From the sequence record OL739525.1: a stretch of 64,000 bases of DNA; one strand, 5' to 3'. Positions 11,101-29,440 of this stretch are shown one piece after another. The translations under genes and the position numbers were made by a program. This DNA is from Escherichia phage dw-ec. The stretch's first letter is position 1; the number at the start of each line of letters is the position of its first letter. The notes beneath the pieces were generated by a model that was not told where the DNA came from, did not search any database, and worked only from the letters and a program-made list of their open reading frames with translations.

Positions 11101-13698
11101 TCAATGACAGGATGCCCAAGAATTCCCCACATCATATCCAGCAGTAAGCTGAACATTAAGATTGTAAAATTCTCCAGCCTTAGTAACAGCTAAAGCAGCA
11201 AGTTCACCTGCCCGACTATAAGCTGTAAACCATCCACCTTTGGGAGATTCATGAATGTTAGCCCAAATTTGCCCTGTCTCTTTTTCCTTATTATGCTTCC
11301 ATTCTTCGACTTTAGCAAGGCATTCTTTATCAATTTTCTTTTGTTCTTCAGGATCGTCTACTTTCTTCCAACCTAATGATTCAGGTGAAAACCATTTGAA
11401 TTCTACAAGGTTACGAGAAACTTCAAGCTGGGCTTCATCGTGATATGCAATCATTTGTTGCACGAAGTCTTTATTCTTCCAGTCATCTTTAAAGAAGTCA
11501 ACACTTAGCCCTTCTTCTTCGATCATGTCATCATAAATAACCATTGCACGTTTAGCACAGATAACCCCACCGCTTTGGAACAGAGAGTTAAGAATCGCGT
11601 GAGCAGAACGAGTAGGAACCTTACGACCGTCAATACCCAAAACATATTGTTTACCAGTCTTAACCCAGAAATCATTTAAACGTTCTTTAAGACGCGCCAA
11701 TGGGAATGCAGCTTCCCAGAAAGCATCGAACACCAATTGACCTGTAAACTTGTCGCTACCAATTGTTTTAGCAACCTTGTCGGCTTGTGCACCATAGGTA
11801 ATACCATACTTAACAGATTTAGCAGGACTACGTTCAAATTTACGTCCAATAGTTTCAGTGATACGTTTTGCCATCATTGTGTGAACATCGTTAGGTTTCT
11901 CTAACAACAGAGCGTTACAATATTCGTGTGGCTCTGGCTCGTACCGCCAACAGTAGTGTGATTCAATTTTTGCTTCCAAAGAGTCGAAGTCGTAGCCAAT
12001 CTGGAAGTACTTAGGAACCTCTACACCAAACAAGTTACGCATCTCCCATCCAAACAAAGATGTGACACGAGGAATATTAGCTACAGACCTATGCTTCATA
12101 CGAGAGGTTGCAGCATCACATGTAGCTGCTGGGGTAGGAATACGACCATCCGCCCTTACTGCGGCTAAGAAACCTTTATCATATTCTTGATCTTCCTCAT
12201 CTTCTTCCCAATCAGCACCACCGCCTAAAATAGAGTTCCTACGATGCTTATACGTTAAGTATTCTACAATCTGTGTAGCATAAGGGAATTTCTCACCTAA
12301 AGCTTGCAGGTTAGGACAGATTTCTTTTTCCTGACCTTTGGTAAAACATGGGTTAGTCAATACTTTAAGACCGCGACCCTTACCTTTTGCTATACGCTCT
12401 TGAATCTTCCTCTCCAAGGTTTCCGGTGTGCACTCCAGATGATCACAACGATCCTGACAAAAATTAGAAGACAGAGTTTGCTCAACGTAAGCTCGAATAC
12501 CTTTCTGAAGTTCTTCCTCGCTCTTTTTAATCTTGGTGCCAGATTTAAGAGTCAAGTCTTTATCTTTATATTCAGACGGTACCCAACCTAATCCTACAAG
12601 CCAGTTTTTAATATGGGTAGTATCGTTCAATGTTGCAGGGATATTAGGATCACACAAAGGCTCATCTGCTGCAACTGGCAGTTTCCATTCTTTCCCCAAC
12701 ATCACTAACCACCAATCTCCATCCCTCTCTTCCAAATGACCATCATGTTTCTTAGCAAAATTGATCATATGGTTAGTTGGCTCTAAGTTCTTTTTAATTT
12801 GCAACTTAGGTGGAATAAAAGCCTTAAGATAACCTTTTGTTGCTGGTTTAGGTGGCAAAATAGGCTCAACGAGTAAACGAAGACGCTCCATTTCTGCATC
12901 CAAAAAAGCAAGGTTCTCTTCTGCTTGTTTCATGTTAAAAGCAAACCCACGGTGTTCCTGGCGTGTAATAATGTCTGCTACACGTTGTTCAAGTTCAAAT
13001 GGACCTTCCCATTTATCATAATCACCCCATTCTTCCATAAGGTAATTATATACGCTCGTATTGGCTTTGTTGTCATAGATACAGTAATAAAGCATATCCG
13101 CAGCAAAAGTCTTAAATCGATCTTCTTCTGGAATCTCTTTACGGAAATCTATTTTTACATCACCCCCTGCCTTTCGAGAAAGTGCTGCCAAGCTATGTCC
13201 TGATTTGCCCTCAATCTTTCGATCTGGGTTTAACACTTTACTCAAAATCAAGGAGTCAATAAGTTTTACCTTATTTTTGCCCCACGTATTATATTTAACA
13301 CTGTAATCTAAACCATAAAACAGTTTTGTAGCCAACCAGTCATAGTTGATACCGTTGTGAGCCACAGCTATTTCAACCAGATATTCAGGCTTATCTTTAA
13401 AATAACCTTCATGATTAATAAAGTCTGGGAAATCTTTTAGTTGAAAATGTGTGTAATCTTGCGCCACATACTCTTTAAGAACATATGTGTATTTACCATC
13501 TGACTCTTCATAAGAACGCCCATCAAAGATGTATTTAGGGCCATCGTGGAAAGCTACTATTTCTCCTGTTTCATGGTTCTCTAAGACAATACAGTGCATT
13601 TGAAATGTGTCTTTGAGACGATAAGGACTAGCTAAATAATCGATAGTGTCATTATTCAACAATCCGTTTGCTTCAATATCCCATGTAAACTTACTCAC
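11101..13698 (-). CDS. DNA polymerase, family A (T7 gene 5-like) with 3'-5' exonuclease domain
   Basis: 865 aa; N-terminus ...DIEANGLL and C-terminus ...NSWASCH parallel T7 DNA polymerase (DIEANALL ... NWAICH); GTG start overlapping upstream stop, AAGGAGG RBS. Confidence 0.9.
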   Translation of the reverse strand: MSKFTWDIEANGLLNNDTIDYLASPYRLKDTFQMHCIVLENHETGEIVAFHDGPKYIFDGRSYEESDGKYTYVLKEYVAQDYTHFQLKDFPDFINHEGYFKDKPEYLVEIAVAHNGINYDWLATKLFYGLDYSVKYNTWGKNKVKLIDSLILSKVLNPDRKIEGKSGHSLAALSRKAGGDVKIDFRKEIPEEDRFKTFAADMLYYCIYDNKANTSVYNYLMEEWGDYDKWEGPFELEQRVADIITRQEHRGFAFNMKQAEENLAFLDAEMERLRLLVEPILPPKPATKGYLKAFIPPKLQIKKNLEPTNHMINFAKKHDGHLEERDGDWWLVMLGKEWKLPVAADEPLCDPNIPATLNDTTHIKNWLVGLGWVPSEYKDKDLTLKSGTKIKKSEEELQKGIRAYVEQTLSSNFCQDRCDHLECTPETLERKIQERIAKGKGRGLKVLTNPCFTKGQEKEICPNLQALGEKFPYATQIVEYLTYKHRRNSILGGGADWEEDEEDQEYDKGFLAAVRADGRIPTPAATCDAATSRMKHRSVANIPRVTSLFGWEMRNLFGVEVPKYFQIGYDFDSLEAKIESHYCWRYEPEPHEYCNALLLEKPNDVHTMMAKRITETIGRKFERSPAKSVKYGITYGAQADKVAKTIGSDKFTGQLVFDAFWEAAFPLARLKERLNDFWVKTGKQYVLGIDGRKVPTRSAHAILNSLFQSGGVICAKRAMVIYDDMIEEEGLSVDFFKDDWKNKDFVQQMIAYHDEAQLEVSRNLVEFKWFSPESLGWKKVDDPEEQKKIDKECLAKVEEWKHNKEKETGQIWANIHESPKGGWFTAYSRAGELAALAVTKAGEFYNLNVQLTAGYDVGNSWASCH

Positions 13699-14492
13699 TA
13701 TTCCTCCTTTCTAATGTTCTCCAGAACCCACTGAAGTTCTTTTAAACTTAAACTTCTTACTCCCGCAGTTTTACTAGCTTCAGCTTTAAGTAACGGGTAA
13801 GCCTCAATGATACGCGTTTTAAGATCAGAAGTCAAGGCTTTTAAAAAATAGGTAGATGCTTCAGATAAAGAATCTTCTTCTGATAACACTTTACCTGCAC
13901 TTGCTCCCGCTCTCCTAACGGCTATATCGTAGTCTTTACTGTTACCTAATACGAATAGTCGATTCTCTCCTAAAACAACGGGAGAACGCTTCTCGTTGCG
14001 TTTAATCCATATCTGGAATACACAAGGAACATCCCAAGGTTCTCCATGAAGAATAAAAGATCCTTTTGGACATTCTTCTTCGTAAAAAAGATGCATGTGG
14101 GGATTTAGTTTGTGTGCAAAAAAGATTTTTTGAAATGTGCGAGGCAAGATAAAACAAATACCACCTTCGTTATCCAACATTTCAGCACAATGGTTAAAGA
14201 ACTTAATGGCAAGACTGGCATTTTTTCCAAACGGAGGATTACCGACAAAAGCAGTTACACTACCAACAGACTCAACAGATTGAGCTAAAAAATCTGCCTC
14301 AATACAATCTTCAAACTTAGGGTCAATATCAAAAGAAGTTATGTTTTTAAAACAAGAAGAGAAAGCTCCTTCTCCCGCAGATGGTTCTACGTAGTTAGCT
14401 TCCTCTCCAAAAATTTCTTTGATCTTATCACATAAGAACCCCGCATAAGCGGGGTTAGTGTAATATTGATCAAGTATGTTCAACTTGCTCAA
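13698..14492 (-). CDS. putative DNA methyltransferase (amino-MTase, NPPF motif)
   Basis: EPSAGEGAF (SAM-binding motif I-like) and VGNPPFG (motif IV); TTG start with AAGGAGG RBS. Confidence 0.55.
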   Translation of the reverse strand: MSKLNILDQYYTNPAYAGFLCDKIKEIFGEEANYVEPSAGEGAFSSCFKNITSFDIDPKFEDCIEADFLAQSVESVGSVTAFVGNPPFGKNASLAIKFFNHCAEMLDNEGGICFILPRTFQKIFFAHKLNPHMHLFYEEECPKGSFILHGEPWDVPCVFQIWIKRNEKRSPVVLGENRLFVLGNSKDYDIAVRRAGASAGKVLSEEDSLSEASTYFLKALTSDLKTRIIEAYPLLKAEASKTAGVRSLSLKELQWVLENIRKEE

Positions 14493-14501
14493 TAGTCCTC
14501 C

Positions 14502-14933
14502 TTAGTTGTTAGCGAACTCAATAGTGAGGTCAACTTTACCATCATCAGAAATAACCATGTTTTTAGTATTTTTAAAGATGATGTCTACTTTACCTTCACT
14601 TACACGACAGAATGCAACACCATCTGCAACTTTATCGATATAATATTTGTAAGAAAGAATACCCACTTTACTACGACCAGCACCTTTTGTGAAAGAAGGG
14701 CTTACATCGAAACGGAAACCTTTAGAAGAAACAACACGGTAAGAACGTCCAGTTGGGATATGTTCAATAACAGAAACATTGTTCTCAACAACTTTTACAG
14801 CAAACTCTTCAGGATGATCCTCAACAATCATATGTGGGATGGCAAATGCCAACGCTTGTTTGTGTTTAATAACACCAGCACCTAGAGCACCAGCAGCTTT
14901 AACTTTTGCATTCAGATCGATTGTCATACGCAT
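14502..14933 (-). CDS. hypothetical protein
   Basis: 143 aa; GAGGAGA RBS; preceded by promoter TTGACA-17-TATACT. Confidence 0.6.
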   Translation of the reverse strand: MRMTIDLNAKVKAAGALGAGVIKHKQALAFAIPHMIVEDHPEEFAVKVVENNVSVIEHIPTGRSYRVVSSKGFRFDVSPSFTKGAGRSKVGILSYKYYIDKVADGVAFCRVSEGKVDIIFKNTKNMVISDDGKVDLTIEFANN

Positions 14934-14966
14934 TTTTACTTCTCCTCTTGTTTGGTTGATGAGACA

Positions 14967-14995
14967 AGTATAAGTCCCTTCCGCAAAGTTGTCAA
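14967..14995 (-). promoter_or_regulatory. sigma70-like promoter (TTGACA-17-TATACT)
   Basis: On minus strand, perfect -35 and near-consensus -10 between primase terminator and 14502..14933. Confidence 0.5.
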
Positions 14996-15000
14996 CAGGT

Positions 15001-15027
15001 ATTTTTAATAAAAGGGCCGAAGCCCTT
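15001..15027 (-). terminator. rho-independent terminator
   Basis: AAGGGC-uucg-GCCCUU stem-loop (UUCG tetraloop) followed by U-rich tract on minus strand after primase-helicase stop. Confidence 0.65.
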
Positions 15028-16804
15028 AATAGTTGCTATCCGTAGGCAAATTAGCAGGATTGTTGAAATACTGCTCTTTGTCATGCAGAGTTGCAGTTCT
15101 AATGTCATAGTAAAACTGCCCTGCCGGACCAGTTTCCGAGAACTCACGGTTTTTTAGGATAAAGCAATGAGTCGTATTGCGTTCTACAGGGTCTTCAGCG
15201 GCTTTATCTCGTTCCAAAGCCAAGGTAATACCAGCACCTTTAGCCAAAAAACTACTACCCATTGCATCGTCCTCTGTTAAGTGTTCATTGCCACCATTAG
15301 CCGATTTCTTAACGTGTGAGATGACGATAATAGTTATAGCGTACTCTTTCATGATGCGCTTCAACCATGTTGCTAACTCTTCCTGGGCTTGAACATCCAT
15401 ACCAGAAAGCAAATCAGAATAAGGGTCGATAACAAGAATTGTTACTCCAAAATAGATGATCATCTCCAAAACTTTTTCTTTGATAGACTCCACATCTGCT
15501 CCACGATCATCACACACATAAAAACGTGGTGATCCATCTTCTCTTTCGTAAAAATCTAGGATTTTTTCTTTATTCTCTTCCAAGATTTGAAATTTCTCTT
15601 CCGGTGTTTTCCTGTGTAGAGGAATATGCAGGAACGAGGACAACAGGTTACGAGAATATTTCTTATAAGTTGCTTCCAAGGACAGAATACCCAAGGTATG
15701 TTCTGGGTGAGCAACAATAATATGTTTGGTGATCTCGTTCACCATCAAAGTTTTACCGATACTGGTCTTTGCCAGGATCACTGTAATCTCTTCCTCTACT
15801 AAACCACCACCCAGCATATTTGCAGCAACACGCATAAAAGGAGGCAAGGTAATCATCTTGGATTCCAAGCATTCTAATGCAGCTTCATACAAGACATTAG
15901 AAGCATAAACACCTGCTGGGGTGTATAGACGAGCACTCCAAAAAGCTTTTACGAAATCTTTTGCACGACCTTCTTCCAGATACTGATTGGCATCCTTAAG
16001 ATCCATCTGCATACGGTAGACTTTGTTACGGGGCAGCACCTTAACAATATTTTCAAATGCCTCATTACCTGCTTTGTCATTATCCATGCAAACAATAATC
16101 TTCTTAAATTTTTCAAAGAAAGGATATTGTGCCTGAACTTGTTTATACATACTGGTTTCACCAGTTGTGCCACTAACTACTGCTGGAAGTTCATATTTGT
16201 TGTCCAAGTTTTCAGACAACATTTGATAAGCTGCCAGAGCATCGTGTTCACCACCTGTAATTACCACAGTATGAGAACGGTCTGCAAAACGAATTTGTCC
16301 AAAAAGATCTACATCTTTACCTACTTGACCAATAGGTTTACTGAAATCTTTAGGATGGATACGACGCTTAAAACCAACCAATTCTTTACCGATGGTAGTT
16401 GGATATAAACAACTTTCTACTACCATCTGATCCCCTTCCTGACGGTATTCATAACGAACACCATAGAAAGATGAAACTTTTTCTTTAATGCCTCGATAAC
16501 CACGTGGGTTGGTTGATGTTTCTTGAACAATTTTACGATGAATCTGTTTATTAAATTCCGAACCCACAATCTCCTCCTCTTCTTCTAAAACTTCACCATT
16601 TTCTCGTAACCATTCTACGCTAGGAATAGTGTATTCACACGCAAAGCACTTAGCACCTTTATGCTCTCCATTAGAATCTAATCCATAAACCATCAGGTTA
16701 TTACGAGAGCGATCCTTGCCATTTTTCATGCAGCGCGGACAACCTGTATGCCCTTCCTTGCTAAGATCAACATCAAATCCATATTTAGTTATAATGTGCG
16801 ACAC
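15026..16804 (-). CDS. DNA primase/helicase (T7 gp4-like)
   Basis: 592 aa; N-terminal zinc-binding CPRC...CFAC, central TOPRIM-like region, C-terminal DnaB-family helicase with Walker A (AKTSIGKT); GTG start with AGGAGA RBS. Confidence 0.85.
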   Translation of the reverse strand: MSHIITKYGFDVDLSKEGHTGCPRCMKNGKDRSRNNLMVYGLDSNGEHKGAKCFACEYTIPSVEWLRENGEVLEEEEEIVGSEFNKQIHRKIVQETSTNPRGYRGIKEKVSSFYGVRYEYRQEGDQMVVESCLYPTTIGKELVGFKRRIHPKDFSKPIGQVGKDVDLFGQIRFADRSHTVVITGGEHDALAAYQMLSENLDNKYELPAVVSGTTGETSMYKQVQAQYPFFEKFKKIIVCMDNDKAGNEAFENIVKVLPRNKVYRMQMDLKDANQYLEEGRAKDFVKAFWSARLYTPAGVYASNVLYEAALECLESKMITLPPFMRVAANMLGGGLVEEEITVILAKTSIGKTLMVNEITKHIIVAHPEHTLGILSLEATYKKYSRNLLSSFLHIPLHRKTPEEKFQILEENKEKILDFYEREDGSPRFYVCDDRGADVESIKEKVLEMIIYFGVTILVIDPYSDLLSGMDVQAQEELATWLKRIMKEYAITIIVISHVKKSANGGNEHLTEDDAMGSSFLAKGAGITLALERDKAAEDPVERNTTHCFILKNREFSETGPAGQFYYDIRTATLHDKEQYFNNPANLPTDSNY

Positions 16805-16816
16805 TTTGTTCTCCTG

Positions 16817-17095
16817 TTAAAATGGTTCGTTAGTCTCCATCATATATTCTGCTTCTAGTTCTTCCATGTGCTTTCTAAATTGGAAAGCAATTTCTGCTAC
16901 AGTTACATTTAAATCTTTTTCAAAAACTTCTGTAGAGCCTTCGTAAAAACGAATACCGTCAATTAAAAGCCCTCCGTGGTAATCCCAATCACTTTCACGA
17001 GAAAGCGGGTTAGGCTCTTCATAATAGTAATCCACCTCCACGACTAAAGCTTTCCCGTTACGAGTGGTGTATTCAAAATCAAAAGTGTTAATCAT
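16817..17095 (-). CDS. hypothetical protein
   Basis: 92 aa ORF tightly packed between primase and glycosyltransferase genes. Confidence 0.55.
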   Translation of the reverse strand: MINTFDFEYTTRNGKALVVEVDYYYEEPNPLSRESDWDYHGGLLIDGIRFYEGSTEVFEKDLNVTVAEIAFQFRKHMEELEAEYMMETNEPF

Positions 17096-18039
17096 TATAG
17101 CTCCTCAAATAAAAGTCTACGACGCTCATTCAACACATCAATGTGATAATGAGTCCTGACATACTTAGCTAATGCTAATCCTTTCTCCATGCAAACATCG
17201 GGAGCACTTAATAAGTATTCCGTAATATCTTTCCACTCGGAAGGTGTTTCAGCAAAGAATAACAAATCTTTAAACTCTTGCGTATGATAATTCTCACGAG
17301 GAGAACAGATCAAAGGTAAACCCTTAGCACCTGCCTCAAGAATTTTAAGATTGCTTTTTGCATTATTAAACACGTTATCAATCAATGGCGCAAGACTGAT
17401 TTGATGACCATCGTAAGATTCCATGTAGTTGGCATATGGTCTTACACCTTCATAAACACAAGTTGGTGCTACATTTTCTCTGATTACAGACCATTCACGA
17501 CTACTTAAAACTTCAGAATCCCTACGAAAACCACATATTGTAAGATCTTTACCAAAATCGGGCAAGATAGCCAAATCTTGTTTATGTGTTTCACTTCCAG
17601 CCCAGACTAATGGAGTTTTGGAGTAGCGATCACGGGTCAACACAAATTGACCTTCATCGTAAGGAAGTCCATTAGGGATTATGTGCACATTATCATTGTA
17701 TTGTGAAAGTTCAACTTGCAAAGCAGGTGTCGTAGTTGTGACAAGATCGCTGTGCTCTAAAAACCATTTTAAATGTTCACGAATACCTGATTCAAAAATA
17801 CCTTCTAACATGTGTCCTTTTGGAATAACTAAAGAGTCATCCAAATCCATAACCATTTTAAAGCCTAGGTTTTTAAGGGCTAAAAAGCCCTGTTTACCTT
17901 TTGTTGGCACCCCGTTAAAAACGAAAACGTTGTGTTTAGGTTGTGAAGAGAACTGCCTTGAGTAAGGCAGCACTACCCTATGGAAATCGCAGACACTATA
18001 ATTGATTCCGTTACGATTGTCAAGAATTATTTGTCCCAT
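17095..18039 (-). CDS. putative glycosyltransferase (GT-B fold), paralog 1
   Basis: 314 aa; C-terminal SNLKILEAGAKGLPLICS resembles GT-B (GT4-like) E..G.P motif; tandem paralog of 18047..18994. Confidence 0.55.
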   Translation of the reverse strand: MGQIILDNRNGINYSVCDFHRVVLPYSRQFSSQPKHNVFVFNGVPTKGKQGFLALKNLGFKMVMDLDDSLVIPKGHMLEGIFESGIREHLKWFLEHSDLVTTTTPALQVELSQYNDNVHIIPNGLPYDEGQFVLTRDRYSKTPLVWAGSETHKQDLAILPDFGKDLTICGFRRDSEVLSSREWSVIRENVAPTCVYEGVRPYANYMESYDGHQISLAPLIDNVFNNAKSNLKILEAGAKGLPLICSPRENYHTQEFKDLLFFAETPSEWKDITEYLLSAPDVCMEKGLALAKYVRTHYHIDVLNERRRLLFEEL

Positions 18040-18046
18040 ACTTCAC

Positions 18047-18994
18047 CTACAAACTTTCAATAACCTGGCGTCGCAACTCGTTTGCATCTGCCAGATTATA
18101 ATGTGTTCGAACATGTTCCGCCAAGAACAAACCACGATCTTCCCGATAGTTTGGATTGCGAAGAAGCTTAACAATTTCGTAATGCCATTCTGCTTTATTC
18201 TCTGCGTAAGCAACAGCGCGAGCATCTACAGGGTTAAAATAAGGTAATACCTTAGAACAAACAATTGGAATACCTTTTGCTCCAGCTTCCAGGATTTTGA
18301 GATTACTTTTACAATTATTAAAATCATTATCTACCAAAGGAGCTATAGCAATAGCATGACTTTCGTAAACACTCATGTAATTATCTAAATCTTTTACAGC
18401 GGCTTTATATTTGGCATTTGGTAAATTTCTGCGAATCTTAATCCACTCTTGTCCCGTGATGCTTTGTGATGCTTCATATCCCGCAATAGTAAGAAGTTCA
18501 TCATCGAAAGTATTAGAGACTAGTCGTAAATCTGGTTCGTGACTAGCACCGCCAGCCCATACAACAGGGGTACCGGATGAACGATCATTTGACAAAGTGA
18601 ATTGTCCACTATCAAAAGGAAGTGCATTTCGGATCACAACAACATTCCTATTTAAGTGACGGATCTTATATGCCAAATATTCTGTAGTCACAATAACCAC
18701 ATCAGCAAGCTTAACCATAGCTACAATAGCATGAGTGTTTGACTCGTATAGACTTGCTAAATAATGTTCTGGATTAAGTTGGTAGAAATCATCTAAATCT
18801 ACAACAATCTTAACACCTTGACGTTTCAAAGATAAAACGTATTCTGCACCTTTAGAGTGGATACGGTTAAACACAACAACATCTTTCTTAGGTTGAAGAT
18901 TATGGTTGTTAAATGGCATAACAATACGATGATAGTCACAACCGCTGTGAGGTTTTGCATCAATTTTTAGTTTAGACCATTTTTTATTTGACAT
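18047..18994 (-). CDS. putative glycosyltransferase (GT-B fold), paralog 2
   Basis: 315 aa; shares CD(F/Y)HR(V/I)V(L/M)P N-terminal motif and SNLKILEAGAKG(L/I)P C-terminal motif with 17095..18039. Confidence 0.55.
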   Translation of the reverse strand: MSNKKWSKLKIDAKPHSGCDYHRIVMPFNNHNLQPKKDVVVFNRIHSKGAEYVLSLKRQGVKIVVDLDDFYQLNPEHYLASLYESNTHAIVAMVKLADVVIVTTEYLAYKIRHLNRNVVVIRNALPFDSGQFTLSNDRSSGTPVVWAGGASHEPDLRLVSNTFDDELLTIAGYEASQSITGQEWIKIRRNLPNAKYKAAVKDLDNYMSVYESHAIAIAPLVDNDFNNCKSNLKILEAGAKGIPIVCSKVLPYFNPVDARAVAYAENKAEWHYEIVKLLRNPNYREDRGLFLAEHVRTHYNLADANELRRQVIESL

Positions 18995-19667
18995 GTGCTA
19001 GTGCCTCCTCATAGGAAATTCGGATTTTCCCATTTTTAATATCCTCTAAAGATGCTTTATATTCTTCCCAGTTAATCCCGATAGCAGCTTCTTTCTCTTC
19101 TTTTGTCAGATTAGCAAAAGGCATAGGATTGTTTCCAAAAACATCGTCTGGGTGGATATAAGCCATGATACGAAGTGGACAAGGTGTTGCCTGAATACCA
19201 TGATTCAAACCAGCAGCTTGTAAACGGTGTCCCCATTCAGCATCTTCAAAACCATAACCATGAGTGTAAGGACGGAAATAACCCATCTTCTCAACAACGG
19301 CACGAGAATACATTGCAAATTGACACATTGCAAGTTCCCAGAGAATAACTTCTCCTTTGCTTCCAACAACTTTATCTTTGAAGTACTCCGGCATACCAAA
19401 GAAATCCCATCCTCCAGAGACAGCTTGATCTACAAAATATGTTTCCCATCCCTCCATGACTGGGTAGCAATCGTCGTCAAAAATAAACCAATAATCATAA
19501 CCTTCTTCATAAAACTGGTGCATAAGTTCATTCCTGGCATAAGCTACACCTTTACGGTCTGGATCGTTGAATACTCGAAAATCTGCACGTGGATCTGTTA
19601 CAAGGTAGTCTTTAAGTGGACGGACACCTACAGTGATAACACCCACTCCGATTTTAATATTTTCCAT
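18984..19667 (-). CDS. putative glycosyltransferase (GT-A fold, DxD)
   Basis: 227 aa; WFIFDDDCYP (DxD) and YGFEDAEWGHRL motifs typical of GT-A family 2-like enzymes. Confidence 0.6.
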   Translation of the reverse strand: MENIKIGVGVITVGVRPLKDYLVTDPRADFRVFNDPDRKGVAYARNELMHQFYEEGYDYWFIFDDDCYPVMEGWETYFVDQAVSGGWDFFGMPEYFKDKVVGSKGEVILWELAMCQFAMYSRAVVEKMGYFRPYTHGYGFEDAEWGHRLQAAGLNHGIQATPCPLRIMAYIHPDDVFGNNPMPFANLTKEEKEAAIGINWEEYKASLEDIKNGKIRISYEEALAHVK

Positions 19668-19675
19668 TTTCTCTC

Positions 19676-20239
19676 CTAAATAGTTTTACTGTGATCATGA
19701 CAGTGTAATAAATGATGTATAGACCGTTGAGGATTTGTTTGACCTAATCTGTAAATGTGAAACAGATACATTCCCCGCATCAATCCTAACCTCTTCCCTT
19801 TTTCATGTAAAGTGCGAGAGAAAATTAAGTCGAATTGGATAGATTTTTCTTCGAAAGGAATTTCATTCCACAAGGATTTTCTAAAAAGCAAAAAGAAACC
19901 TGCTAGAGGTGTTCCGAAAGGAACTTCTTCAACACTCACTTTATGATATTCTCTTGCAATCTTAGCATATTCTATATGGTTTAGAATATCTGGATCATCG
20001 TTAATTTGGTTAGAGAAAAGCTGATAACCACTGCCTAACCTGTTACAAGTTGCACCTATTACATCAAAAGGTGGGTTTGACATAACAAGCTCTTCAAGCA
20101 TAGATGGTTGATCAGGTAGGAGGAACATTGTATCGGTATCTCTTAAACACACCCAACTATCATCTGGAAGAACGGCAATGGCTTCATTGATAGCCTTGCC
20201 GATATTTCCTGTCAGATAGGGAGTAATATAATAAATCAT
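19676..20239 (-). CDS. putative glycosyltransferase-like protein (GT-A-like)
   Basis: 187 aa; CLRDTDTMF DxD-like motif; weaker than neighbours. Confidence 0.4.
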   Translation of the reverse strand: MIYYITPYLTGNIGKAINEAIAVLPDDSWVCLRDTDTMFLLPDQPSMLEELVMSNPPFDVIGATCNRLGSGYQLFSNQINDDPDILNHIEYAKIAREYHKVSVEEVPFGTPLAGFFLLFRKSLWNEIPFEEKSIQFDLIFSRTLHEKGKRLGLMRGMYLFHIYRLGQTNPQRSIHHLLHCHDHSKTI

Positions 20240-20255
20240 TCTCCCCTCCGTTATA

Positions 20256-20447
20256 TTAACTGTCGGCTACAATCCCGCGTTTAATCATTTCCTGTTGGAT
20301 TTGGATGACACGATCTCGTGCTTCCATGTATTCTTTAAAAGATTCTTGAAGATGGTCACGAGCTACGTCTCGTAGCTTAATCAGTTTGTCGTTTGTCACT
20401 TCTTGAAGAGAGATTTCGCCAGTTTCATTGGTCCCAAGCGTTTTCAT
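20256..20447 (-). CDS. hypothetical protein
   Basis: 63 aa ORF. Confidence 0.45.
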   Translation of the reverse strand: MKTLGTNETGEISLQEVTNDKLIKLRDVARDHLQESFKEYMEARDRVIQIQQEMIKRGIVADS

Positions 20448-20655
20448 TTACAACCTCCTTAATAGCTACTGCACAGTTCTTACAAATACATTGACCTTTG
20501 TTCTTAGAAATTTCAATGTAAGGTTCATTTTCGTTTTCTCCGCGTCGTGAGTCGTATATTACCGTATTGAAGCAGACAACGCAAATGTTTTTAATAACGA
20601 CATATTTTTGCACTTTCTGTTTAGTGCGAAAATTGACTTCAATGACTTCTCCCAT
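20425..20655 (-). CDS. small zinc-ribbon protein
   Basis: Internal ATG at 20655 with GGGGAG RBS; CVVC...CICKNC. Confidence 0.45.
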   Translation of the reverse strand: MGEVIEVNFRTKQKVQKYVVIKNICVVCFNTVIYDSRRGENENEPYIEISKNKGQCICKNCAVAIKEVVNENAWDQ

Positions 20656-20939
20656 CAGTGAATCTCCCCTAAAATGTTGTTTTGAGACATTACTGCGGAG
20701 CATTCTACAGCATCATGAGTCCTTGCAAAACGCTCCCACAACACAGCATCTACTTTAAGAACCATACAAGGATAAATACTGTCGTTGATCATGTCAATGC
20801 TATATTTATCTACATCCTTTTCACCTTCCATAAACAAAGTAGCATATGCTTCTAAATGCTTACGGGTGTAGTATACATCCTCTTCAGTAAGACCGACAAC
20901 CAGGTAACTTGCTACAACAACAGTATTATCTTCTTGCAT
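20655..20939 (-). CDS. hypothetical protein
   Basis: Internal ATG at 20939 with GGGGAG RBS chosen to avoid 62-nt overlap with upstream gene. Confidence 0.5.
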   Translation of the reverse strand: MQEDNTVVVASYLVVGLTEEDVYYTRKHLEAYATLFMEGEKDVDKYSIDMINDSIYPCMVLKVDAVLWERFARTHDAVECSAVMSQNNILGEIH

Positions 20940-20940
20940 T

Positions 20941-21462
20941 TTAACTCCCCTTTGGTAGATAGAAACCATGCACTTTATCTCGATAAACAAGACGCATATC
21001 ACGTTCCCAGTGTGTCCTTATATTCCGTTTCTTGAAGTATAGAGCACCTTTAGTAACATCTAAAACAGACCGCAATTCAGGAAAATGTTTCTCTAAATAA
21101 AGTAAACGCTCCGCTATTGCTTTTGCTTCCTGCCACTTATCTTTCTCTGTTACGTTAAAAGTTTTCGCATATGAGAATTGCCCTTTCTGGAACAAGACTC
21201 CTCTGACCGTGTTAGGGAAGTAGGTATCATTTCTTCTGTTGATTACCACATTCCCAACGGCATTCATTCCTTTTTTACCCAGACCTCGACCTTCTGCGTA
21301 AATTGCACAAGCTAATAGAATTTTATCATTATATTGCTTTGTACATTTGTGAACTACTTTAGCGGTTTTTACGTTTGCAGCTTCGGCTTTCGCCACAACA
21401 GGTGTAAATGTAAAAGCAGTTAAGGATAGTAACGCAACTGTTACAAAGTTTTTTATCAGCAA
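20941..21462 (-). CDS. secreted cell-wall hydrolase (SleB/CwlJ-like), candidate endolysin
   Basis: N-terminal signal peptide (MLIKNFVTVALLSLTAFTFTPVVAKA); ACAIYAEGRG...VVINRRND...FP..V..VLFQKGQFS resembles Hydrolase_2 (SleB) domain. Confidence 0.65.
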   Translation of the reverse strand: MLIKNFVTVALLSLTAFTFTPVVAKAEAANVKTAKVVHKCTKQYNDKILLACAIYAEGRGLGKKGMNAVGNVVINRRNDTYFPNTVRGVLFQKGQFSYAKTFNVTEKDKWQEAKAIAERLLYLEKHFPELRSVLDVTKGALYFKKRNIRTHWERDMRLVYRDKVHGFYLPKGS

Positions 21463-21494
21463 ATTTTGCCTCCTTTTTAAGTTAACGAATTTCT

Positions 21495-21523
21495 AGTATA
21501 ACACGATAGAGGCTTTATTGCAA
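21495..21523 (-). promoter_or_regulatory. sigma70-like promoter (TTGCAA-17-TATACT)
   Basis: On minus strand upstream of 20941..21462. Confidence 0.45.
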
Positions 21524-21561: not shown

Positions 21562-22164
21562 TTATGGACATTCATACCATTCTTTTTTACCACCGAAGGC
21601 CATCACCACATCGCAAATATCCAGACCGGCTTTACCTACACCATATGCTTTCAGCTTCCATTCCCCATCTTCACGAACCAAGGAAGCCACGTGGCAGATT
21701 GTGTTACCAGCTACTTCAGGAGCCAGGAAGTCAAAATCCAGAATTTCCACATTACGTTCGGAGTCAAAGATTTTAAGCATACCTTCAGAAGCATGACCAA
21801 AACGTTTCAGACCTGTATCATCATCAATGGTCAGAACAAAGGCAATCTCTTGTGCATCAGGAGAGATTTTAGCCAGAGTAATATCAATCTGCTCCATGCT
21901 GCCAGTCCCATCACGAACATCGTCACCAGCGAAGGTAGAACGTTCAGGATCAAACTTGTTAGCGTAGCAAACCAGATGACGTGCAGACAGCATTTCAGGA
22001 TTGCCAGCGGCATTATGACGACAAACCAGTGCACTTACATCCAGATCCAGTTTAGAATCAGATTTCCAAGAGAATTCCAGGCGCAGTTCTTTCAGAGCCG
22101 GAGCAACTTTCTTCAGGGAAATTTTTTCGCTAGAGCCTTTTTTCAGGGAAATTTTATCAGTCAT
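21562..22164 (-). CDS. terD: TerD-family protein
   Basis: 200 aa; motifs parallel E. coli/plasmid TerD: LDLDVSALV, TFAGDDVRDGTGSMEQIDITL, EIAFVLTIDD, REDGEWKLKAYGVG. Confidence 0.85.
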   Translation of the reverse strand: MTDKISLKKGSSEKISLKKVAPALKELRLEFSWKSDSKLDLDVSALVCRHNAAGNPEMLSARHLVCYANKFDPERSTFAGDDVRDGTGSMEQIDITLAKISPDAQEIAFVLTIDDDTGLKRFGHASEGMLKIFDSERNVEILDFDFLAPEVAGNTICHVASLVREDGEWKLKAYGVGKAGLDICDVVMAFGGKKEWYECP

Positions 22165-22179
22165 CTTTTGTCTCCTCTA

Positions 22180-22449
22180 TTATTTAAGTGTAATACCAGT
22201 TACAGTCAATTCTACTTCCAAAAGCTTAGATGTGTTTTGGATTGATACTAATTGTGCATGATGGTTTAGTTCTACAGCGGAATAATCATTCTCCCCATCG
22301 TCTACTTTTAAATAAACAATGATTTCACTAAGGTCTAAACCATTTTCGTCAAATGCATTTTCATAGACGAAAGTATCTCCTACATCCAAATCTTTAATGG
22401 TAAGGCATCGTTTATTTACTTTTTGCTCATCAATTTCGAAGTTTAACAC
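22180..22449 (-). CDS. hypothetical protein (paralog family with 23471..23749)
   Basis: 89 aa; shares DLDVG(D/A)TF...GLD...VE(L/V)T(G/N)ITLK with 23471..23749. Confidence 0.55.
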   Translation of the reverse strand: MLNFEIDEQKVNKRCLTIKDLDVGDTFVYENAFDENGLDLSEIIVYLKVDDGENDYSAVELNHHAQLVSIQNTSKLLEVELTVTGITLK

Positions 22450-22678
22450 TTCTTCCTCCTAATGTTATCTCCGGTTTGTATATACGAAGAATTATAGCAT
22501 TTTCATTTTCTTTGTCAACCCATTCTTCATAATCGGGCCATACATGAATCTCTACTCTACTTACAATATCTTCCATTCGCACAGTCCCAATGAAATACTC
22601 TTTGAGACTGCGCATAATGAAAGCTTCTCTCTCGCGCCAATAATTTTCTACGACTTGAGAGGCAAGCTCGTCGATCAT
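22430..22678 (-). CDS. hypothetical protein
   Basis: 82 aa ORF. Confidence 0.5.
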   Translation of the reverse strand: MIDELASQVVENYWREREAFIMRSLKEYFIGTVRMEDIVSRVEIHVWPDYEEWVDKENENAIILRIYKPEITLGGRSVKLRN

Positions 22679-23469
22679 TTTTTAGCACCTACTTTAACAA
22701 CCCACTCTCCGAACTCTTCAGATAAGAGTTTGTCATAAAGCTCTGAATCTGTCAAGTCTAAATCTTTAATGCCAATAAAACCAACATTATCATAAGCATT
22801 TGCCAGTTCTTTCAGGAAGCCAAACTTCTCATTACCAACGCCAACCATGAACCAATAAATAGGTTTATTCTTATTCTCTTCAATAAGACGACGAACAGCA
22901 CTAGGATCACCATTCTCACCATCCGTCTGGAAGAATACAACACCAGGGGTAACGTCAGCACCTGGTTCAGATACAGCTACAACTTTTTCACGCTCTACAG
23001 ACACTGTTTCAGTTTTACCAAGCAGACGATTAAAGAAGCCTTTCTTTGGAGCCTCCTCTTGTACCACTTGTTTAGTGGTAATATATTTGGTAACAGTGCC
23101 AAAATACTCATCGTAGATATCTGCCATTACAGGGGCGTAATTTGTTCCACCTCCGATACGAACATTACGCATACATTTACCAACATAGTCATCGTAAACG
23201 TCTGCTGTTGCTGGAGTAAGCTCTTGGGAACTCGTATTGAAGGCCCACATATCAATTTGTTGATTATCGTCGAACAGCATACCAAAAGGAAGCAGTTTAC
23301 CTACAAAATCACTCACTACCCCACTAGAATATAGACCATGCATACTACCAGAAATATCTAGAGCACATGCTACACGAAGAACAATCTTACCTTCATTCAG
23401 GTTCTTATTCTTTTTCAGAGAGAAAGCAAGGTTTTCTTGACGTTTTTTCAGGCTGATTTTCTCGGACAT
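22675..23469 (-). CDS. von Willebrand factor A (vWA) domain protein with TerD-like N-terminal leader (TerY/TerF-like)
   Basis: 264 aa; MIDAS motif ALDISGSMHG; N-terminus MSEKISLKK resembles TerD N-terminus; AGGAGA RBS. Confidence 0.65.
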   Translation of the reverse strand: MSEKISLKKRQENLAFSLKKNKNLNEGKIVLRVACALDISGSMHGLYSSGVVSDFVGKLLPFGMLFDDNQQIDMWAFNTSSQELTPATADVYDDYVGKCMRNVRIGGGTNYAPVMADIYDEYFGTVTKYITTKQVVQEEAPKKGFFNRLLGKTETVSVEREKVVAVSEPGADVTPGVVFFQTDGENGDPSAVRRLIEENKNKPIYWFMVGVGNEKFGFLKELANAYDNVGFIGIKDLDLTDSELYDKLLSEEFGEWVVKVGAKK

Positions 23470-23470
23470 A

Positions 23471-23749
23471 TTATTTCTCCTTCTTAAGTGTAATATTGGT
23501 AACTTCTAAATCTACTTCCACCATATTTGTATCTGGTGGGATGCAATGAGTATAGCCTCGTTGTGCTAGTGATCCATTAATACAAATCGCACTGTTTGTG
23601 GAATTTTTAATGAACACCAAGTTACGGTAGGTATCCAACCCTGCGTCTTCATAGGCATCATAATACATGAATGTGGCCCCTACATCAAGATCTTCGAAAG
23701 CAATAGGTAAATCCTGACTTTTTTCTTCTTGAATATTGAATCTAAACAC
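23471..23749 (-). CDS. hypothetical protein (paralog of 22180..22449)
   Basis: GTG start at 23749 with GAGGAGG RBS gives 93 aa matching paralog length; alternative track start 23815. Confidence 0.45.
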   Translation of the reverse strand: MFRFNIQEEKSQDLPIAFEDLDVGATFMYYDAYEDAGLDTYRNLVFIKNSTNSAICINGSLAQRGYTHCIPPDTNMVEVDLEVTNITLKKEK

Positions 23750-24305
23750 GCATACCTCCTCTACCAATTTTGAAGCCCAAATCGTAAGCTTCCTTAGTGA
23801 TCTTTTGTAACTCACTTATAGGAAGTGTTACAAGAGGATCATCTTCTTCAATTTCCATCTTGTCATCTTCTGTTTCAATGAGAGTATTATGCACTTTGTG
23901 ATAAGGGTTGTCAACACGTTTAAACTTATTCTTTTCTGTGCTGAAAAAACAATCTGGATCTTCTTCACCATCACCCCAACCTTGGTTAGGATCTCCGTCA
24001 GATTGTTCTGTAGGGATTTCACCTGTAAAGTACTCTTCCAGCACCATAGCGATACCGTCCCTTGGATTTGAGGAATGCATCAAATCACAAACCTTACTCC
24101 AATCCATAGCCCATTCAAATCGTTCACGAACACCATTTTCATCCTCCTTTCCAGAGAAAACACAACCATAACTATCATAGTTGCCATACATCTCTTCAAT
24201 AACAACACCGTCCTTCAAAAGAAAGAGGTAGCAAGGTGATCCGTCGAAAGAAGTAGAAAGGGCAGCTTTGCCCGATTCTTTGCACAAAAAGCTAAAACAA
24301 CCCAT
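23742..24305 (-). CDS. hypothetical acidic protein
   Basis: 187 aa ORF. Confidence 0.55.
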   Translation of the reverse strand: MGCFSFLCKESGKAALSTSFDGSPCYLFLLKDGVVIEEMYGNYDSYGCVFSGKEDENGVRERFEWAMDWSKVCDLMHSSNPRDGIAMVLEEYFTGEIPTEQSDGDPNQGWGDGEEDPDCFFSTEKNKFKRVDNPYHKVHNTLIETEDDKMEIEEDDPLVTLPISELQKITKEAYDLGFKIGRGGMRV

Positions 24306-24703
24306 TACAAACCCTCCTTCAGATTATCAAGAGCTACAGTGGTTTCACAAAATTCTCCATAAGCTTTATGATGTTCCAGAAAAGCTTCGGGTCCACCCCA
24401 GTCATTATCTTGTGTATTCCAGCCATCTATAAAAGCATCTTCAATGATTGTGATCAGTTCCTGTCGAGTCAACGTAATGGTATCAGGTTTCTGCGTAGTT
24501 TCCACACGGAACCCTGGTTCTTCATAAAAACCTTTAGTTATAATGGATTCTAACTCTTCTGCATCACAGAGGAAGTAGCCACAAAGATAACACCAACCGT
24601 CATCATCTTTCATTACTTCATAAACTTCACCACTTGCCAAATTAGTGAAAAGAGTAGGGTCTGTTACTGTAAGTTTTAAAAGAATACCTGTTGGATTATA
24701 CAT
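24305..24703 (-). CDS. hypothetical protein
   Basis: 132 aa ORF, RBS GGAGGAAG. Confidence 0.55.
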   Translation of the reverse strand: MYNPTGILLKLTVTDPTLFTNLASGEVYEVMKDDDGWCYLCGYFLCDAEELESIITKGFYEEPGFRVETTQKPDTITLTRQELITIIEDAFIDGWNTQDNDWGGPEAFLEHHKAYGEFCETTVALDNLKEGL

Positions 24704-26762: not shown

Positions 26763-26764
26763 AC

Positions 26765-27358: not shown

Positions 27359-27372
27359 TGTTTTTCTCCTTA

Positions 27373-28344: not shown

Positions 28345-28361
28345 AAGTCTCTCCTATAAAA

Positions 28362-28384: not shown

Positions 28385-28386
28385 TA

Positions 28387-29361: not shown

Positions 29362-29378
29362 TCTTTTCTCCTCTCTTT

Positions 29379-29437: not shown

Positions 29438-29440
29438 CAC

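Follow-up and report, generated by a model that had tools for sequence, protein, structure and literature searches.

A four-gene cassette of a phAPEC8-like Escherichia coli myovirus is built around a portable glycosyltransferase pair and more likely acts on a protein or other non-DNA target

The T-even DNA glucosyltransferases (T4 alpha-GT and beta-GT and the beta-glucosyl-HMC-alpha-glucosyltransferase of T2 and T6) and the arabinosyl system of RB69 are phage glycosyltransferases encoded among DNA-metabolism genes, and the T4 enzymes take the GT-B fold. TarP is a prophage-encoded soluble GT-A enzyme that alters wall teichoic acid, and Gtr-type lysogenic conversion depends on a GtrA flippase, a GtrB bactoprenol glycosyltransferase, and GtrC. 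Clusters of several soluble glycosyltransferases are encoded by phages such as Che8, Corndog (gp38), and Myrna; in the accounts of Freeman 2023 given in PMC12363180 and PMC11256854, gp108-110 of Che8 are described as glycosylating the capsid and the tail tube. A cassette resembling the last group in being phage encoded, clustered, and soluble is described in this study.

The 64,000-nt stretch of DNA that was analyzed (the window) comes from a Phapecoctavirus, a phAPEC8-like E. coli myovirus with 99% identity to published genomes. The initial annotation pointed to four clustered minus-strand open reading frames (Table 1), which are already labeled as glycosyltransferases in RefSeq. Each begins with ATG preceded by a Shine-Dalgarno sequence, and neighboring genes are joined in turn by a gap of 8 nt, an overlap of 11 nt between the GT-A stop and the GT-B2 start, a gap of 7 nt, and a 1-nt overlap of the GT-B1 stop with the start of the next gene, p92. 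Against the phi92-like orthologs, pN is 0.16 to 0.25 and the saturated pS is 0.67 to 0.83, the same as for the primase/helicase gene; the four frames are therefore genuine genes rather than chance ones, strongly conserved and under purifying selection. The cassette is found in approximately 120 Stephanstirmvirinae genomes, and p92, which follows it in every large-myovirus locus compared, is possibly its companion. No transmembrane segment was found in any of the four cassette proteins, all of which are soluble.

Table 1. Features of the cassette and its flank in the window
Feature	Position	Strand	Basis
GTx, putative small GT-A-like transferase, 187 aa, soluble, first cassette gene	19676..20239	-	PHROG 14179 'glycosyltransferase', E 8.5e-113
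GT-A, predicted DxD glycosyltransferase, GT2/GT7-like superfamily, 227 aa, core module gene 1	18984..19667	-	AF2 model, Foldseek, PHROG 2456 E 1e-78
GT-B2, predicted GT4-type GT-B glycosyltransferase, 315 aa, core module gene 2	18047..18994	-	AF2 model, Foldseek, homologs
GT-B1, GT-B2 paralog, 314 aa	17095..18039	-	41% identity to GT-B2; Pfam Glyco_trans_1_2; PHROG 7162 E 2.5e-145
p92, acidic protein, 92 aa, pI 4.2, possible companion	16817..17095	-	PHROG 4240
Primase/helicase	15026..16804		
DNA-methyltransferase-like, NPPF motif	13698..14492		

In this window the cassette lies between an endolysin gene and the adjoining primase/helicase gene, among replication genes and away from structural genes, and the nearby DNA-methyltransferase-like gene is also where it had been reported. 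The methyltransferase gene is missing from the phi92-like loci and is thus not a cassette member. A set of Ter and nucleoside-like-metabolite genes is another neighbor in this window; elsewhere among phages, the cassette occurs apart from the Ter genes.

The AF2 model of GT-A (pLDDT 89) takes the shape of a single Rossmann-like GT-A fold. A Foldseek search of the PDB returned 41 matches at E <= 1e-3, consisting of GT-A glycosyltransferases, among them the generic enzymes A197 of STIV, B4GALNT1, LH3, TarP, and B4GalT7, and of nucleotide-sugar enzymes with the same fold; the BFVD matches are viral GT2-like proteins. Among solved structures, the closest match is A197 of STIV, a virus whose capsid protein is glycosylated. 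The FDDD motif (F63-D64-D65-D66; 19470-19481) is invariant in all 16 family members, and the YGxED motif (19242-19256) is also invariant. The Pfam GT2 model scores the protein at 13.3 bits, under the gathering threshold of 23.3, which only distant relatives reach; in the wider family GT2 is matched in 37 of 60 members (E values as low as 2e-17), Glyco_transf_7C in 28, and TAGT in 5, always below threshold for the last. By its predicted structure GT-A is a DxD glycosyltransferase of the GT-A fold, and it belongs to a GT2/GT7-like group at the superfamily level only. The family is acidic, with a median pI of 4.9.

The GT-B2 model (pLDDT 95) shows the two-Rossmann-domain GT-B fold and has 284 PDB matches at E <= 1e-3; its fold neighbors are led by GlgM, ManT, BshA, PglA, MshA, and PimB' and also include GtfC/Gtf3, SdgB, and TarM. 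The motifs CDYHR, LDD, and KILEAGAKG (18272-18298) are conserved and recur in GT-B1, where the last is at 17320-17346. The donor-binding signature of the GT-B C-terminal domain (xLEAxAxGxP) is kept in both proteins, and Lys229, Ser230, Asn231, Glu236, and Gly238 are invariant in 45 sequences. The two are tandem paralogs, as was originally proposed (41% identity, E 3e-77). The GT1-clan model Glyco_trans_1_2 of Pfam gives GT-B1 25.2 bits against a cut-off of 25 and GT-B2 20.4 bits, which is below it. As judged from its model, GT-B2 is a GT4-type GT-B glycosyltransferase; 209 homologs of it were retrieved. The smallest protein, GTx, has an RDxDT motif (20129-20143) that is nearly invariant in its family alignment, together with conserved NRLG and LFRKSLW motifs, while its proposed GT-A fold found no match in Pfam, NCBIfam, PDB, HH, or profile searches. 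The initial annotation had described both smaller proteins as GT-A-like with DxD motifs; the description holds for the 227-residue protein, whereas for GTx the glycosyltransferase label is plausible, given the names of its PHROG matches and its fixed position in the cassette.

The GT-A and GT-B genes form a portable two-gene module, which is a new finding of this study. The pair is adjacent and mostly overlapping in unrelated phages and prophages of Pseudomonas, Enterobacter, Serratia-like bacteria, Paraburkholderia, Devosia, and others, where it usually lies just upstream of the terminase genes, beside TerL proteins of at least four different families. A GT-B2 homolog adjoins the GT-A homolog in 14 of 18 nonredundant loci, and no other gene family is common to the 18 neighborhoods compared. 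In temperate relatives, the pair is part of the late operon, spaced by gaps of 3 to 55 nt and flanked by the lysis genes on one side and (HNH)-terS-terL on the other; being packed in this way, it shares its expression with the packaging and structural genes, unlike a stand-alone lysogenic-conversion moron. Module identity is 40 to 45% across phages with unrelated capsid proteins, and the hosts (Pseudomonas, Enterobacteriaceae, Burkholderiaceae, Chitinophaga, and Acetivibrio) differ widely in their envelopes. Both GT-B paralogs are present in loci L008 to L019 and a single copy in L020 and the small phages, a distribution that marks GT-B1 as an expansion specific to the large phAPEC8/phi92-like myoviruses. 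GTx also stands beside the pair in unrelated prophages (L006, L024, L026, L047, and L048). An NDP-hexose 4,6-dehydratase gene (dTDP-glucose-4,6-dehydratase-like) is inside the cassette in two lineages (L006 and L020), and phAPEC8 carries rmlABCD away from the cassette, with bona fide RmlB and RmlD. No flippase, ligase, polymerase, or conserved membrane partner accompanies the cassette across the compared loci.

The cassette more likely assembles a short chain of sugars on a protein or another target that is not DNA, and our best guess, with a probability of roughly 0.35, is that a phage or virion protein is glycosylated. Beyond its own family, the next phage relatives of GT-A are 327 glycosyltransferases of cluster-F mycobacteriophages of the Che8 gp108 type (25 to 28% identity, E 1e-8 to 1e-6); in a pairwise alignment with the N-terminal domain of gp108, identity is 23% (E 9e-4). 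This homology is limited to the nucleotide-sugar-binding half and therefore says little about the acceptor. Che8 gp108-110 lie just before an HNH gene at the cos/terminase end, a position shared by the module in temperate relatives and not by the cassette in this window. Methyltransferase or sugar-modifying partners occur in both systems, in the C-terminal domain of gp108 (by sequence inspection) and at a Luteibacter locus. On the other hand, the Che8 cluster consists of three GT-A-type enzymes with no GT-B, and gp109 and gp110 have no match to the cassette proteins. No published glycoprotein stain or mass-spectrometric record turned up for the Stephanstirmvirinae, and the hosts are Gram negative.

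Chromosomal relatives also bear on a protein acceptor. GT-B homologs outside phages (41 to 45% identity) occur at an invasin/intimin autotransporter locus that is conserved in three Burkholderiaceae species, directly downstream of the inverse autotransporter and a 555-residue beta-rich protein and with the GT-A partner absent, and another is found in Edaphocola beside a GT90 gene and a T9SS-secreted Ig-like protein. These contexts indicate protein or surface glycan, not DNA. The GT-B2 model resembles the glycosyltransferases of adhesins and SRR proteins (GtfC/Gtf3 and SdgB) among other GT4 enzymes; the connection to adhesin glycosylation is one of gene neighborhood only, and the autotransporter heptosyltransferases known so far fall into other families.

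Several observations weigh against a virion-protein acceptor. In the near-atomic cryo-EM structure of phi92 (2026), the capsid, cement, sheath, tube, and baseplate proteins were modeled with no mention of glycan or unexplained density, and only the tail fibers and the tape-measure N terminus are unresolved (PMC13450770). The acceptor signature of Che8, Ser/Thr-rich C-terminal tails on the capsid and tube proteins, is absent; such tails were seen in 2 of 423 open reading frames in 22 glycosyltransferase-bearing loci, both anecdotal, and the C-terminal tails of the phAPEC8 major capsid, tube, and sheath proteins are unremarkable. The replication-gene setting in this window also counts against this reading, and a universal acceptor, for example DNA or a molecule of the host, would account more readily than phage-specific proteins for the occurrence of the pair in phages with unrelated capsids.

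A possible, if somewhat doubtful, alternative is that the host envelope is remodeled, the soluble enzymes acting at the inner membrane face on a lipid-linked or core glycan (Und-PP-GlcNAc, ECA, an O unit, or the LPS core) with dTDP-rhamnose or other donors. A GT2-type GT-A, a GT4-type GT-B, and Rml enzymes, here including the rmlABCD of the phage, are the enzymes typically employed in assembling O antigen, LPS, and ECA, and PglA, PimB', TarP, TarM, and WrtF are among the fold neighbors. Phage-borne GT-A enzymes that use nucleotide sugars are also found among the O-antigen-, LPS-, and teichoic-acid-modifying systems, such as GtrABC and TarP. The receptors of Stephanstirmvirinae, ECA and the LPS core (PMC8594841), fit this reading, as does the BASEL annotation of the GT-B proteins as 'putative disaccharide synthase.' However, temperate phages carry the pair within the late operon, 3 to 55 nt from the terminase genes, and it would therefore be made minutes before lysis and not in the lysogen; the cassette comes without a membrane protein of any kind and without a flippase, ligase, or polymerase, and the envelopes of the module hosts are too varied to fit easily. 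The cassette does not match lysogenic conversion of the Gtr type, as GtrA- and GtrC-type membrane proteins, transmembrane segments, and a lysogenic-conversion position are all lacking.

It is unlikely that the target is instead another cytoplasmic molecule, for instance a small molecule, an RNA base such as the queuosine of tRNA, or a host protein that is glycosylated in take-over or antidefense, in the manner of the glycosylating toxins and effectors of bacteria. The solubility of all four enzymes is compatible with such a target, and the GT4 fold neighbors include the small-molecule enzymes BshA, MshA, GlgM, tetrahydrobiopterin glucosyltransferase, and SenB. Eukaryotic queuosine glycosylation employs one GT2-type and one GT4-type enzyme. 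The Luteibacter pair is chromosomal and lies with a SAM methyltransferase gene in surroundings that are otherwise unrelated. The Ter and nucleoside-like-metabolite genes beside the cassette point in the same direction in this window, but the Ter genes do not accompany it elsewhere, and late-operon placement in temperate phages is a poor fit to host take-over.

Glycosylation of DNA, which the initial annotation favored as a means of evading restriction and which had already been raised by Olsen et al. 2020 (PMC7552041), is disfavored and the least probable of these readings; it would require an unrecognized base activator or hydroxymethyl-free chemistry on replicated phage DNA, with a density or placement that leaves the restriction enzymes tested so far unhindered. 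The location beside primase/helicase, polymerase, and methyltransferase genes would suit it, and a universal acceptor such as DNA would account for the movement of the pair among unrelated phages. Late DNA-modification genes, such as mom of Mu and many phage methyltransferases, sit near terminase genes, so the terminase-adjacent site of the module would likewise suit a DNA-modifying enzyme. GT-A has a weak match over 39 residues to the T-even beta-glucosyl-HMC-alpha-glucosyltransferase (PHROG 842), and like TAGT (PF20691) it is a small phage GT-A with DxD; 15 of the 16 family members give a weak but consistent TAGT-like signal. However, all of these TAGT scores are below the gathering threshold (19.5 bits for the GT-A of the window and at most about 20 in the family, against 27.5) and are confined to the DxD region, where they span approximately 38 of the 205 positions in the profile, and the family at large is GT2/GT7-like.

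The partners that DNA glycosylation would call for are also missing. As initially noted, the window holds no hydroxymethylase, and no hydroxymethylase, TET/JBP, DpdA, or kinase partner was found in the window, the phAPEC8 annotation, or approximately 30 neighborhoods; specifically, no ThyA-family dCMP/dUMP hydroxymethylase is present in the window or the phAPEC8 annotation. The 'thymidylate synthase' gp156 of phAPEC8 was rejected as a candidate, being weakly ThyX-like (31 bits against a cut-off of 87.9) and present also in rV5, which has no such glycosyltransferases. Nor was a T-even pathway of dCMP hydroxymethylase, dCTPase, and hm-dCMP kinase found. Neither a TET/JBP dioxygenase nor a C5-methyltransferase, as would be expected beside TAGT, was found in 18 neighborhoods or is annotated in phAPEC8; for the small phages, the TET/JBP check covered cassette neighborhoods rather than whole genomes.

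The GT-B proteins share a GT-B fold with the T4 enzymes but are GT4-like, T4 AGT and BGT are missing from the top 50 Foldseek PDB matches of the GT-B2 model, and no PDB sequence match to T4 alpha-GT or beta-GT was obtained. Neither the T4 DNA glucosyltransferases nor TAGT gave a match above threshold. The acidity of the GT-A family and the chromosomal homologs in adhesin loci count further against a DNA acceptor. Restriction resistance had been anticipated, and the literature reports the opposite for relatives: phi92 and the BASEL phages EmilieFrey, PaulScherrer, and JohannJBalmer carry the orthologous cassette, and the phi92-like BASEL phages are 'exceptionally susceptible' to restriction-modification systems (PMC8594841) and are reported to be sensitive also to Druantia III and ARMADA II, two systems that modified T4 evades. 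HincII cuts Phapecoctavirus DNA, whereas T-even DNA resists (PMC10269720). The alternative mentioned in the initial annotation, in which virion proteins or polysaccharide of the host surface would be modified, is the better fit to the evidence.

With a phage protein as the preferred acceptor, the cassette would be a phage-borne glycan builder whose core is a translationally coupled soluble pair of GT-A (227 aa) and GT-B (315 aa), enlarged in the phAPEC8/phi92-like myoviruses by the second GT-B paralog and the 187-aa small DxD protein. During lytic growth, sugars may be added stepwise in the cytoplasm from nucleotide-sugar donors, perhaps up to about four residues, at least one of them probably a 6-deoxyhexose, for example rhamnose, made available by Rml enzymes of the phage or the host. 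The acceptor would be a non-DNA macromolecule, most probably a phage-encoded protein such as a virion component, and possibly a fiber or minor protein, in parallel with the Che8-type mycobacteriophage cassette that O-glycosylates capsid and tail-tube proteins. If the envelope were the target instead, receptor glycans might be altered or blocked, which would bring about superinfection exclusion and spare the progeny from adsorbing to debris, or undecaprenyl phosphate might be sequestered.

The window belongs to a Phapecoctavirus, an E. coli myovirus of the phAPEC8 type in the subfamily Stephanstirmvirinae; its region from position 13000 to 21500 is 99.4% identical to phage ETEC-TG and 98.9% identical to phAPEC8. 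The four ORFs claimed in the initial annotation are present on the minus strand with the coordinates originally assigned to them, and they correspond to gp071 to gp074 of phAPEC8, all of which carry the RefSeq label 'glycosyltransferase' (GT). All four begin with ATG behind a Shine-Dalgarno sequence. In succession, neighboring ORFs are separated by 8 nt, overlap by 11 nt, and are separated by 7 nt, and a small fifth gene, p92, overlaps the cassette by 1 nt. A scan of the cassette for sigma-70 promoters and terminators gave nothing above shuffle expectation and no minus-strand terminator-like site inside it, which is only weakly informative on an operon. In all phAPEC8- and phi92-like myoviruses, the gene order is a SleB-type endolysin, two small genes, GTx, GT-A, GT-B2, GT-B1, p92, and the primase/helicase. 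Non-synonymous divergence from the phi92-like orthologs is 0.16-0.25, whereas synonymous sites are saturated (0.67-0.83), so the cassette ORFs are real genes under strong purifying selection; the neighboring primase/helicase has the same divergence pattern. None of the four cassette proteins contains a transmembrane segment. The SleB-type endolysin keeps its position just upstream of the cassette in all large myovirus relatives, and its hydrophobic, signal-like N-terminus suggests a secreted or signal-anchor-release enzyme.

Features of the window and of related loci, with their locations and strands
Feature	Location	Strand	Remarks
p92	16817-17095	-	small gene
GT-B1	17095-18039	-	314 aa
GT-B2	18047-18994	-	315 aa
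GT-A	18984-19667	-	227 aa
GTx	19676-20239	-	187 aa
SleB-type (Hydrolase_2) endolysin	20941-21462	-	N-terminus MLIKNFVTVALLSLTAFTFTPVVAKAEA, max KD 1.94
'DNA N6-adenine methyltransferase'	13698-14492	-	NPPF motif; Pfam Eco57I E 0.022; PHROG 799 E 3e-10 (weak)
TerD	21562-22164	-	
vWA-TerF-like	22675-23469	-	
TelA	25063-26175	-	
SprT-like metallopeptidase	26172-26762	-	
TerC membrane protein	28387-29361	-	
Macro domain	29675-30253	-	
PRTase_3/ComF-like phosphoribosyltransferase	30162-30989	-	
HAD hydrolase	30982-31638	-	
AAA/STAND-like ATPase	46762-47901	+	
408-aa protein	47976-49202	+	four CapR-homology domains, treble-clef zinc finger, MUG113/T5orf172-type domain
phAPEC8 gp156, 'putative thymidylate synthase'	L004 (phAPEC8 segment outside the window) 713-1711		332 aa; ThyX 31 bits vs 87.9, residues 22-176
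Adhesin locus, Burkholderia dolosa, Trinickia symbiotica, Trinickia sp.	L036 3025-8440; L037 2742-9026; L050		
Thr-rich tails, Enterobacter huaxiensis prophage	L006 13650-15608, 19960-20487		capsid ...GANTTT (inspection), tail tube ...TTTANPTT (scan match)

GT-B1 and GT-B2 are paralogs with 41% identity, and both keep the donor-site signature KILEAGAKG. The AlphaFold model of GT-B2, built with 45 homologs, has a pLDDT of 95 and takes a GT-B fold of the GT4 kind; its best solved neighbors are GlgM, methylmannose-polysaccharide mannosyltransferase, BshA, PglA, MshA, PimB', GtfC/Gtf3, SdgB, and TarM, and the DNA glucosyltransferases of T4 are absent from the top 50. GT-A is modeled with a pLDDT of 89 as a GT-A fold with invariant FDDD and YGxED motifs, and its solved neighbors are generic GT-A enzymes (STIV A197, B4GALNT1, the GT domain of LH3, TarP, and B4GalT7). 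Its Pfam matches are all sub-threshold; the best, to TAGT, scores 19.5 bits against a cut-off of 27.5, covers approximately 38 residues around the DxD motif, and recurs as a weak match in 15 of the 16 family members. When 1.84 billion representatives were searched by profile, 1512 relatives of GT-A were recovered, and among 60 distant ones GT2 was matched in 37 (E values to 2e-17), Glyco_transf_7C in 28, and TAGT weakly in 5. This dominance of GT2 and Glyco_transf_7C places the family, as judged from profile matches, in a branch of the GT2/GT7-like superfamily and not in TAGT. GTx is a member of a small family confined to phages, in which an RDxDT motif is nearly invariant; profile, PDB, and Pfam searches gave no support for its putative GT fold, its family profile had no similarity to the GT-A family or extended family, and Pfam searches with all members gave scattered single weak matches. 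PDB sequence searches with the three GT types yielded nothing usable, and the matches of a BFVD fold search were for the most part phage GT-A proteins without a name, together with GTs of giant and archaeal viruses, which are uninformative on the acceptor. The description of the cluster as four GTs is right for GT-A and the two GT-B paralogs and plausible for GTx. The family classification that had been proposed as a check gives a GT4-like GT-B and a GT2/GT7-like GT-A, with no T4-type or TAGT membership.

Viral contigs, genomes, and assemblies were scanned for relatives, which gave approximately 50 loci. Outside the phAPEC8/phi92-like lineage, 14 of 18 non-redundant loci have GT-A and GT-B side by side, usually overlapping; in some loci the pair comes with GTx attached, and no gene family beyond the GTs is common to different backbones among these 18. 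In temperate phages and prophages, the pair is located between the lysis genes and (HNH)-terS-terL, in Pseudomonas, Enterobacter, a Serratia-like contig, Paraburkholderia, Devosia, and other hosts, with gaps of 3-55 nt to the next genes and next to at least four large-terminase families. This tight packing before terS-terL argues that the pair is part of the late operon rather than a conversion gene with its own expression. Between GTx and GT-A, the Enterobacter prophage and a distant myovirus contig carry a dTDP-glucose-4,6-dehydratase-like gene, and phAPEC8 encodes bona fide RmlB and RmlD, together with RmlA and RmlC, approximately 70 kb from the cassette; both observations indicate that the donor is probably a 6-deoxyhexose. 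Phapecoctavirus ESCO37 keeps the cassette and lacks rmlA and rmlB. The best-supported reading is that the cassette is a conserved, mobile phage glycan-building system with a core of GT-A and a GT4-type GT-B; in the window, GT-B is duplicated and a small DxD protein is added.

The most likely acceptor is a phage protein, a reading to which we give a probability of roughly one in three. After its own family, the next phage relatives of GT-A are 327 GTs of cluster F mycobacteriophages, of the Che8 gp108 type, with 25-28% identity over residues 26-155. Che8 gp108-110 directly precede an HNH gene at the terminase end, and the module in temperate phages is placed alike; according to the accounts of Freeman 2023 in PMC12363180 and PMC11256854, these proteins add glycans to the capsid and tail tube of Che8. 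Three Burkholderiaceae species also have a GT-B homolog (41-45% identity) in a conserved chromosomal locus, in the order of an invasin/intimin inverse autotransporter, a 555-571-aa β-rich protein, and the GT-B homolog, with two convergent β-rich proteins of 474 and 245 aa; this locus is a candidate adhesin-glycosylation system that appears undescribed. In Edaphocola, a GT-B homolog has a GT90 enzyme and a T9SS-secreted Ig-like protein as neighbors, and in Luteibacter a GT-B/GT-A pair occurs with a SAM methyltransferase. The Che8-type relatives and position, together with these bacterial contexts, point to a protein or another non-DNA glycoconjugate.

Several observations count against glycosylation of the virion itself. 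The capsid proteins of phages sharing the module are unrelated. The acceptor sites in Che8 are reportedly C-terminal, and Che8-like Ser/Thr-rich C-terminal tails were found in 2 of 423 ORFs from 22 GT-bearing loci. The Thr-rich capsid and tail-tube ends of the Enterobacter huaxiensis prophage recall the Che8 O-glycosylation sites, but this is the sole suggestive case among GT-bearing phages, and such tails were rejected as a general feature. The near-atomic cryo-EM study of phi92 (2026; PMC13450770), in which the capsid, cement, sheath, tube, and baseplate were modeled and the fibers were unresolved, mentions no glycan. Isoelectric points (acidic for the GT-A family, about neutral for GT-B) are too weak to decide the acceptor. 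In one paper, ten phages, E. coli phage JEP7 among them, stained negative for glycoprotein; it was set aside because the genus of its coliphages is not stated.

Remodeling of the host envelope is a possible but somewhat unlikely alternative: GT2 and GT4 enzymes with Rml proteins form a natural envelope toolkit for phages whose receptors are ECA and LPS, but late-operon placement fits this role poorly, and no membrane partner accompanies the cassette. Other cytoplasmic targets seem unlikely. Glycosylation of phage DNA, including sparse or site-specific modification, which was the original proposal (as a means of evading restriction) and which Olsen et al. 2020 (PMC7552041) had already suggested for phages of this group, is improbable. 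A universal acceptor would neatly account for movement of the module between unrelated phages; however, no hydroxymethylase, TET/JBP, DpdA, or similar enzyme was found in the window, in line with the reported lack of a hydroxymethylase there, in the phAPEC8 annotation, or linked to the module elsewhere. The sole 'thymidylate synthase' of phAPEC8, gp156, is a weak ThyX-like protein common to rV5-like phages without the cassette; rV5 and PVP-SE1 have it, and its label is doubtful. Furthermore, phi92 and the BASEL phages EmilieFrey/Bas61, PaulScherrer, and JohannJBalmer carry a complete orthologous cassette with 66-76% amino acid identity to that of the window, and the phi92-like BASEL phages are 'exceptionally susceptible' to restriction-modification systems 'despite ... 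a putative dTDP glycosylation machinery' (Maffei et al. 2021; PMC8594841). Druantia III and ARMADA II, both of which T4, with glucosyl-hmC, escapes, act on them as well. In HincII typing of 42 coliphages (PMC10269720), three T-even-type phages alone were refractory, so Phapecoctavirus DNA was cut. Restriction evasion by base glycosylation is thus unsupported and partly contradicted by the published phenotypes of phages with the same cassette. More doubtful still is a hydroxymethylase-independent route, in which the GT-A/GT-B pair, in some loci joined by its 4,6-dehydratase, would build a (deoxy)hexose disaccharide at sparse or specific sites on a normal or otherwise activated base, against defenses beyond the tested restriction systems; it would explain the mobility of the pair and its position beside replication and packaging genes. 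Our literature search on glycosylation or DNA modification in Phapecoctavirus, Justusliebigvirus, and phi92 found only the speculation of Olsen and the counter-observation of Maffei.

The NPPF-motif methyltransferase is specific to Phapecoctavirus: phAPEC8-like loci have it, and phi92-like loci lack it although they retain the GTs, so it is not part of the cassette and has no functional tie to it. A near-complete Ter-type gene set occupies 21562-31638 on the minus strand, immediately upstream of the cassette; it is unusual for a lytic coliphage and is mostly annotated as 'hypothetical' in phAPEC8. It matches the 'Ter stress-response / nucleoside-like metabolite' association reported by Anantharaman, Iyer and Aravind (2012). 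A functional link of the cassette to the methyltransferase or to the Ter/nucleoside-metabolite genes was rejected, since neither travels with it.

Elsewhere in the window, genes lie on the minus strand from 8.5 to 43.7 kb and on the plus strand from 43.8 kb, and GC skew and coding strand invert sharply at approximately 43700-44100, with the cumulative GC-skew minimum at approximately 44 kb; transcription diverges here, and the site may be a replication-related landmark. The 408-aa CapR-domain protein, labeled just 'endonuclease' in phAPEC8, looks like a conflict or anti-defense protein. Four GenBank records (MG065639, MG065645, MG065656, and MG065689) are named 'Campylobacter phage A150/A145/C3/A110a', with Campylobacter jejuni as the stated host. 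Over the cassette they share 98% identity with phi92-like E. coli phages of equal genome size, and probably either the host assignment is wrong or the records are coliphage contaminants.

The annotation of these genes as GTs and the DNA-glycosylation idea were already known. New are the definition of the core module of two genes, its distribution beside terminase genes, the dehydratase within the cassette, the homologs in adhesin loci, and the explicitly negative outcome of DNA-GT membership tests. The results correct a tempting but unsupported annotation habit, i.e., that a phage GT near replication genes signifies DNA glucosylation. The phAPEC8- and phi92-like phages rank among the most often isolated coliphages with a broad host range and serve in therapeutic and biocontrol cocktails; they devote approximately 3 kb of genome to a four-enzyme glycosylation cassette on which selection is as strong as on the primase/helicase. 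The two-gene core, widespread in prophages beside terminase genes, offers a compact and experimentally tractable handle on the acceptor. If the target is the host envelope, the cassette would represent a receptor-masking strategy of lytic phages, and if it is DNA, a new DNA-modification chemistry. A virion-protein target would make the cassette the first system of virion glycosylation beyond the actinobacteriophages, with a bearing on antibody recognition and clearance of therapeutic phages.
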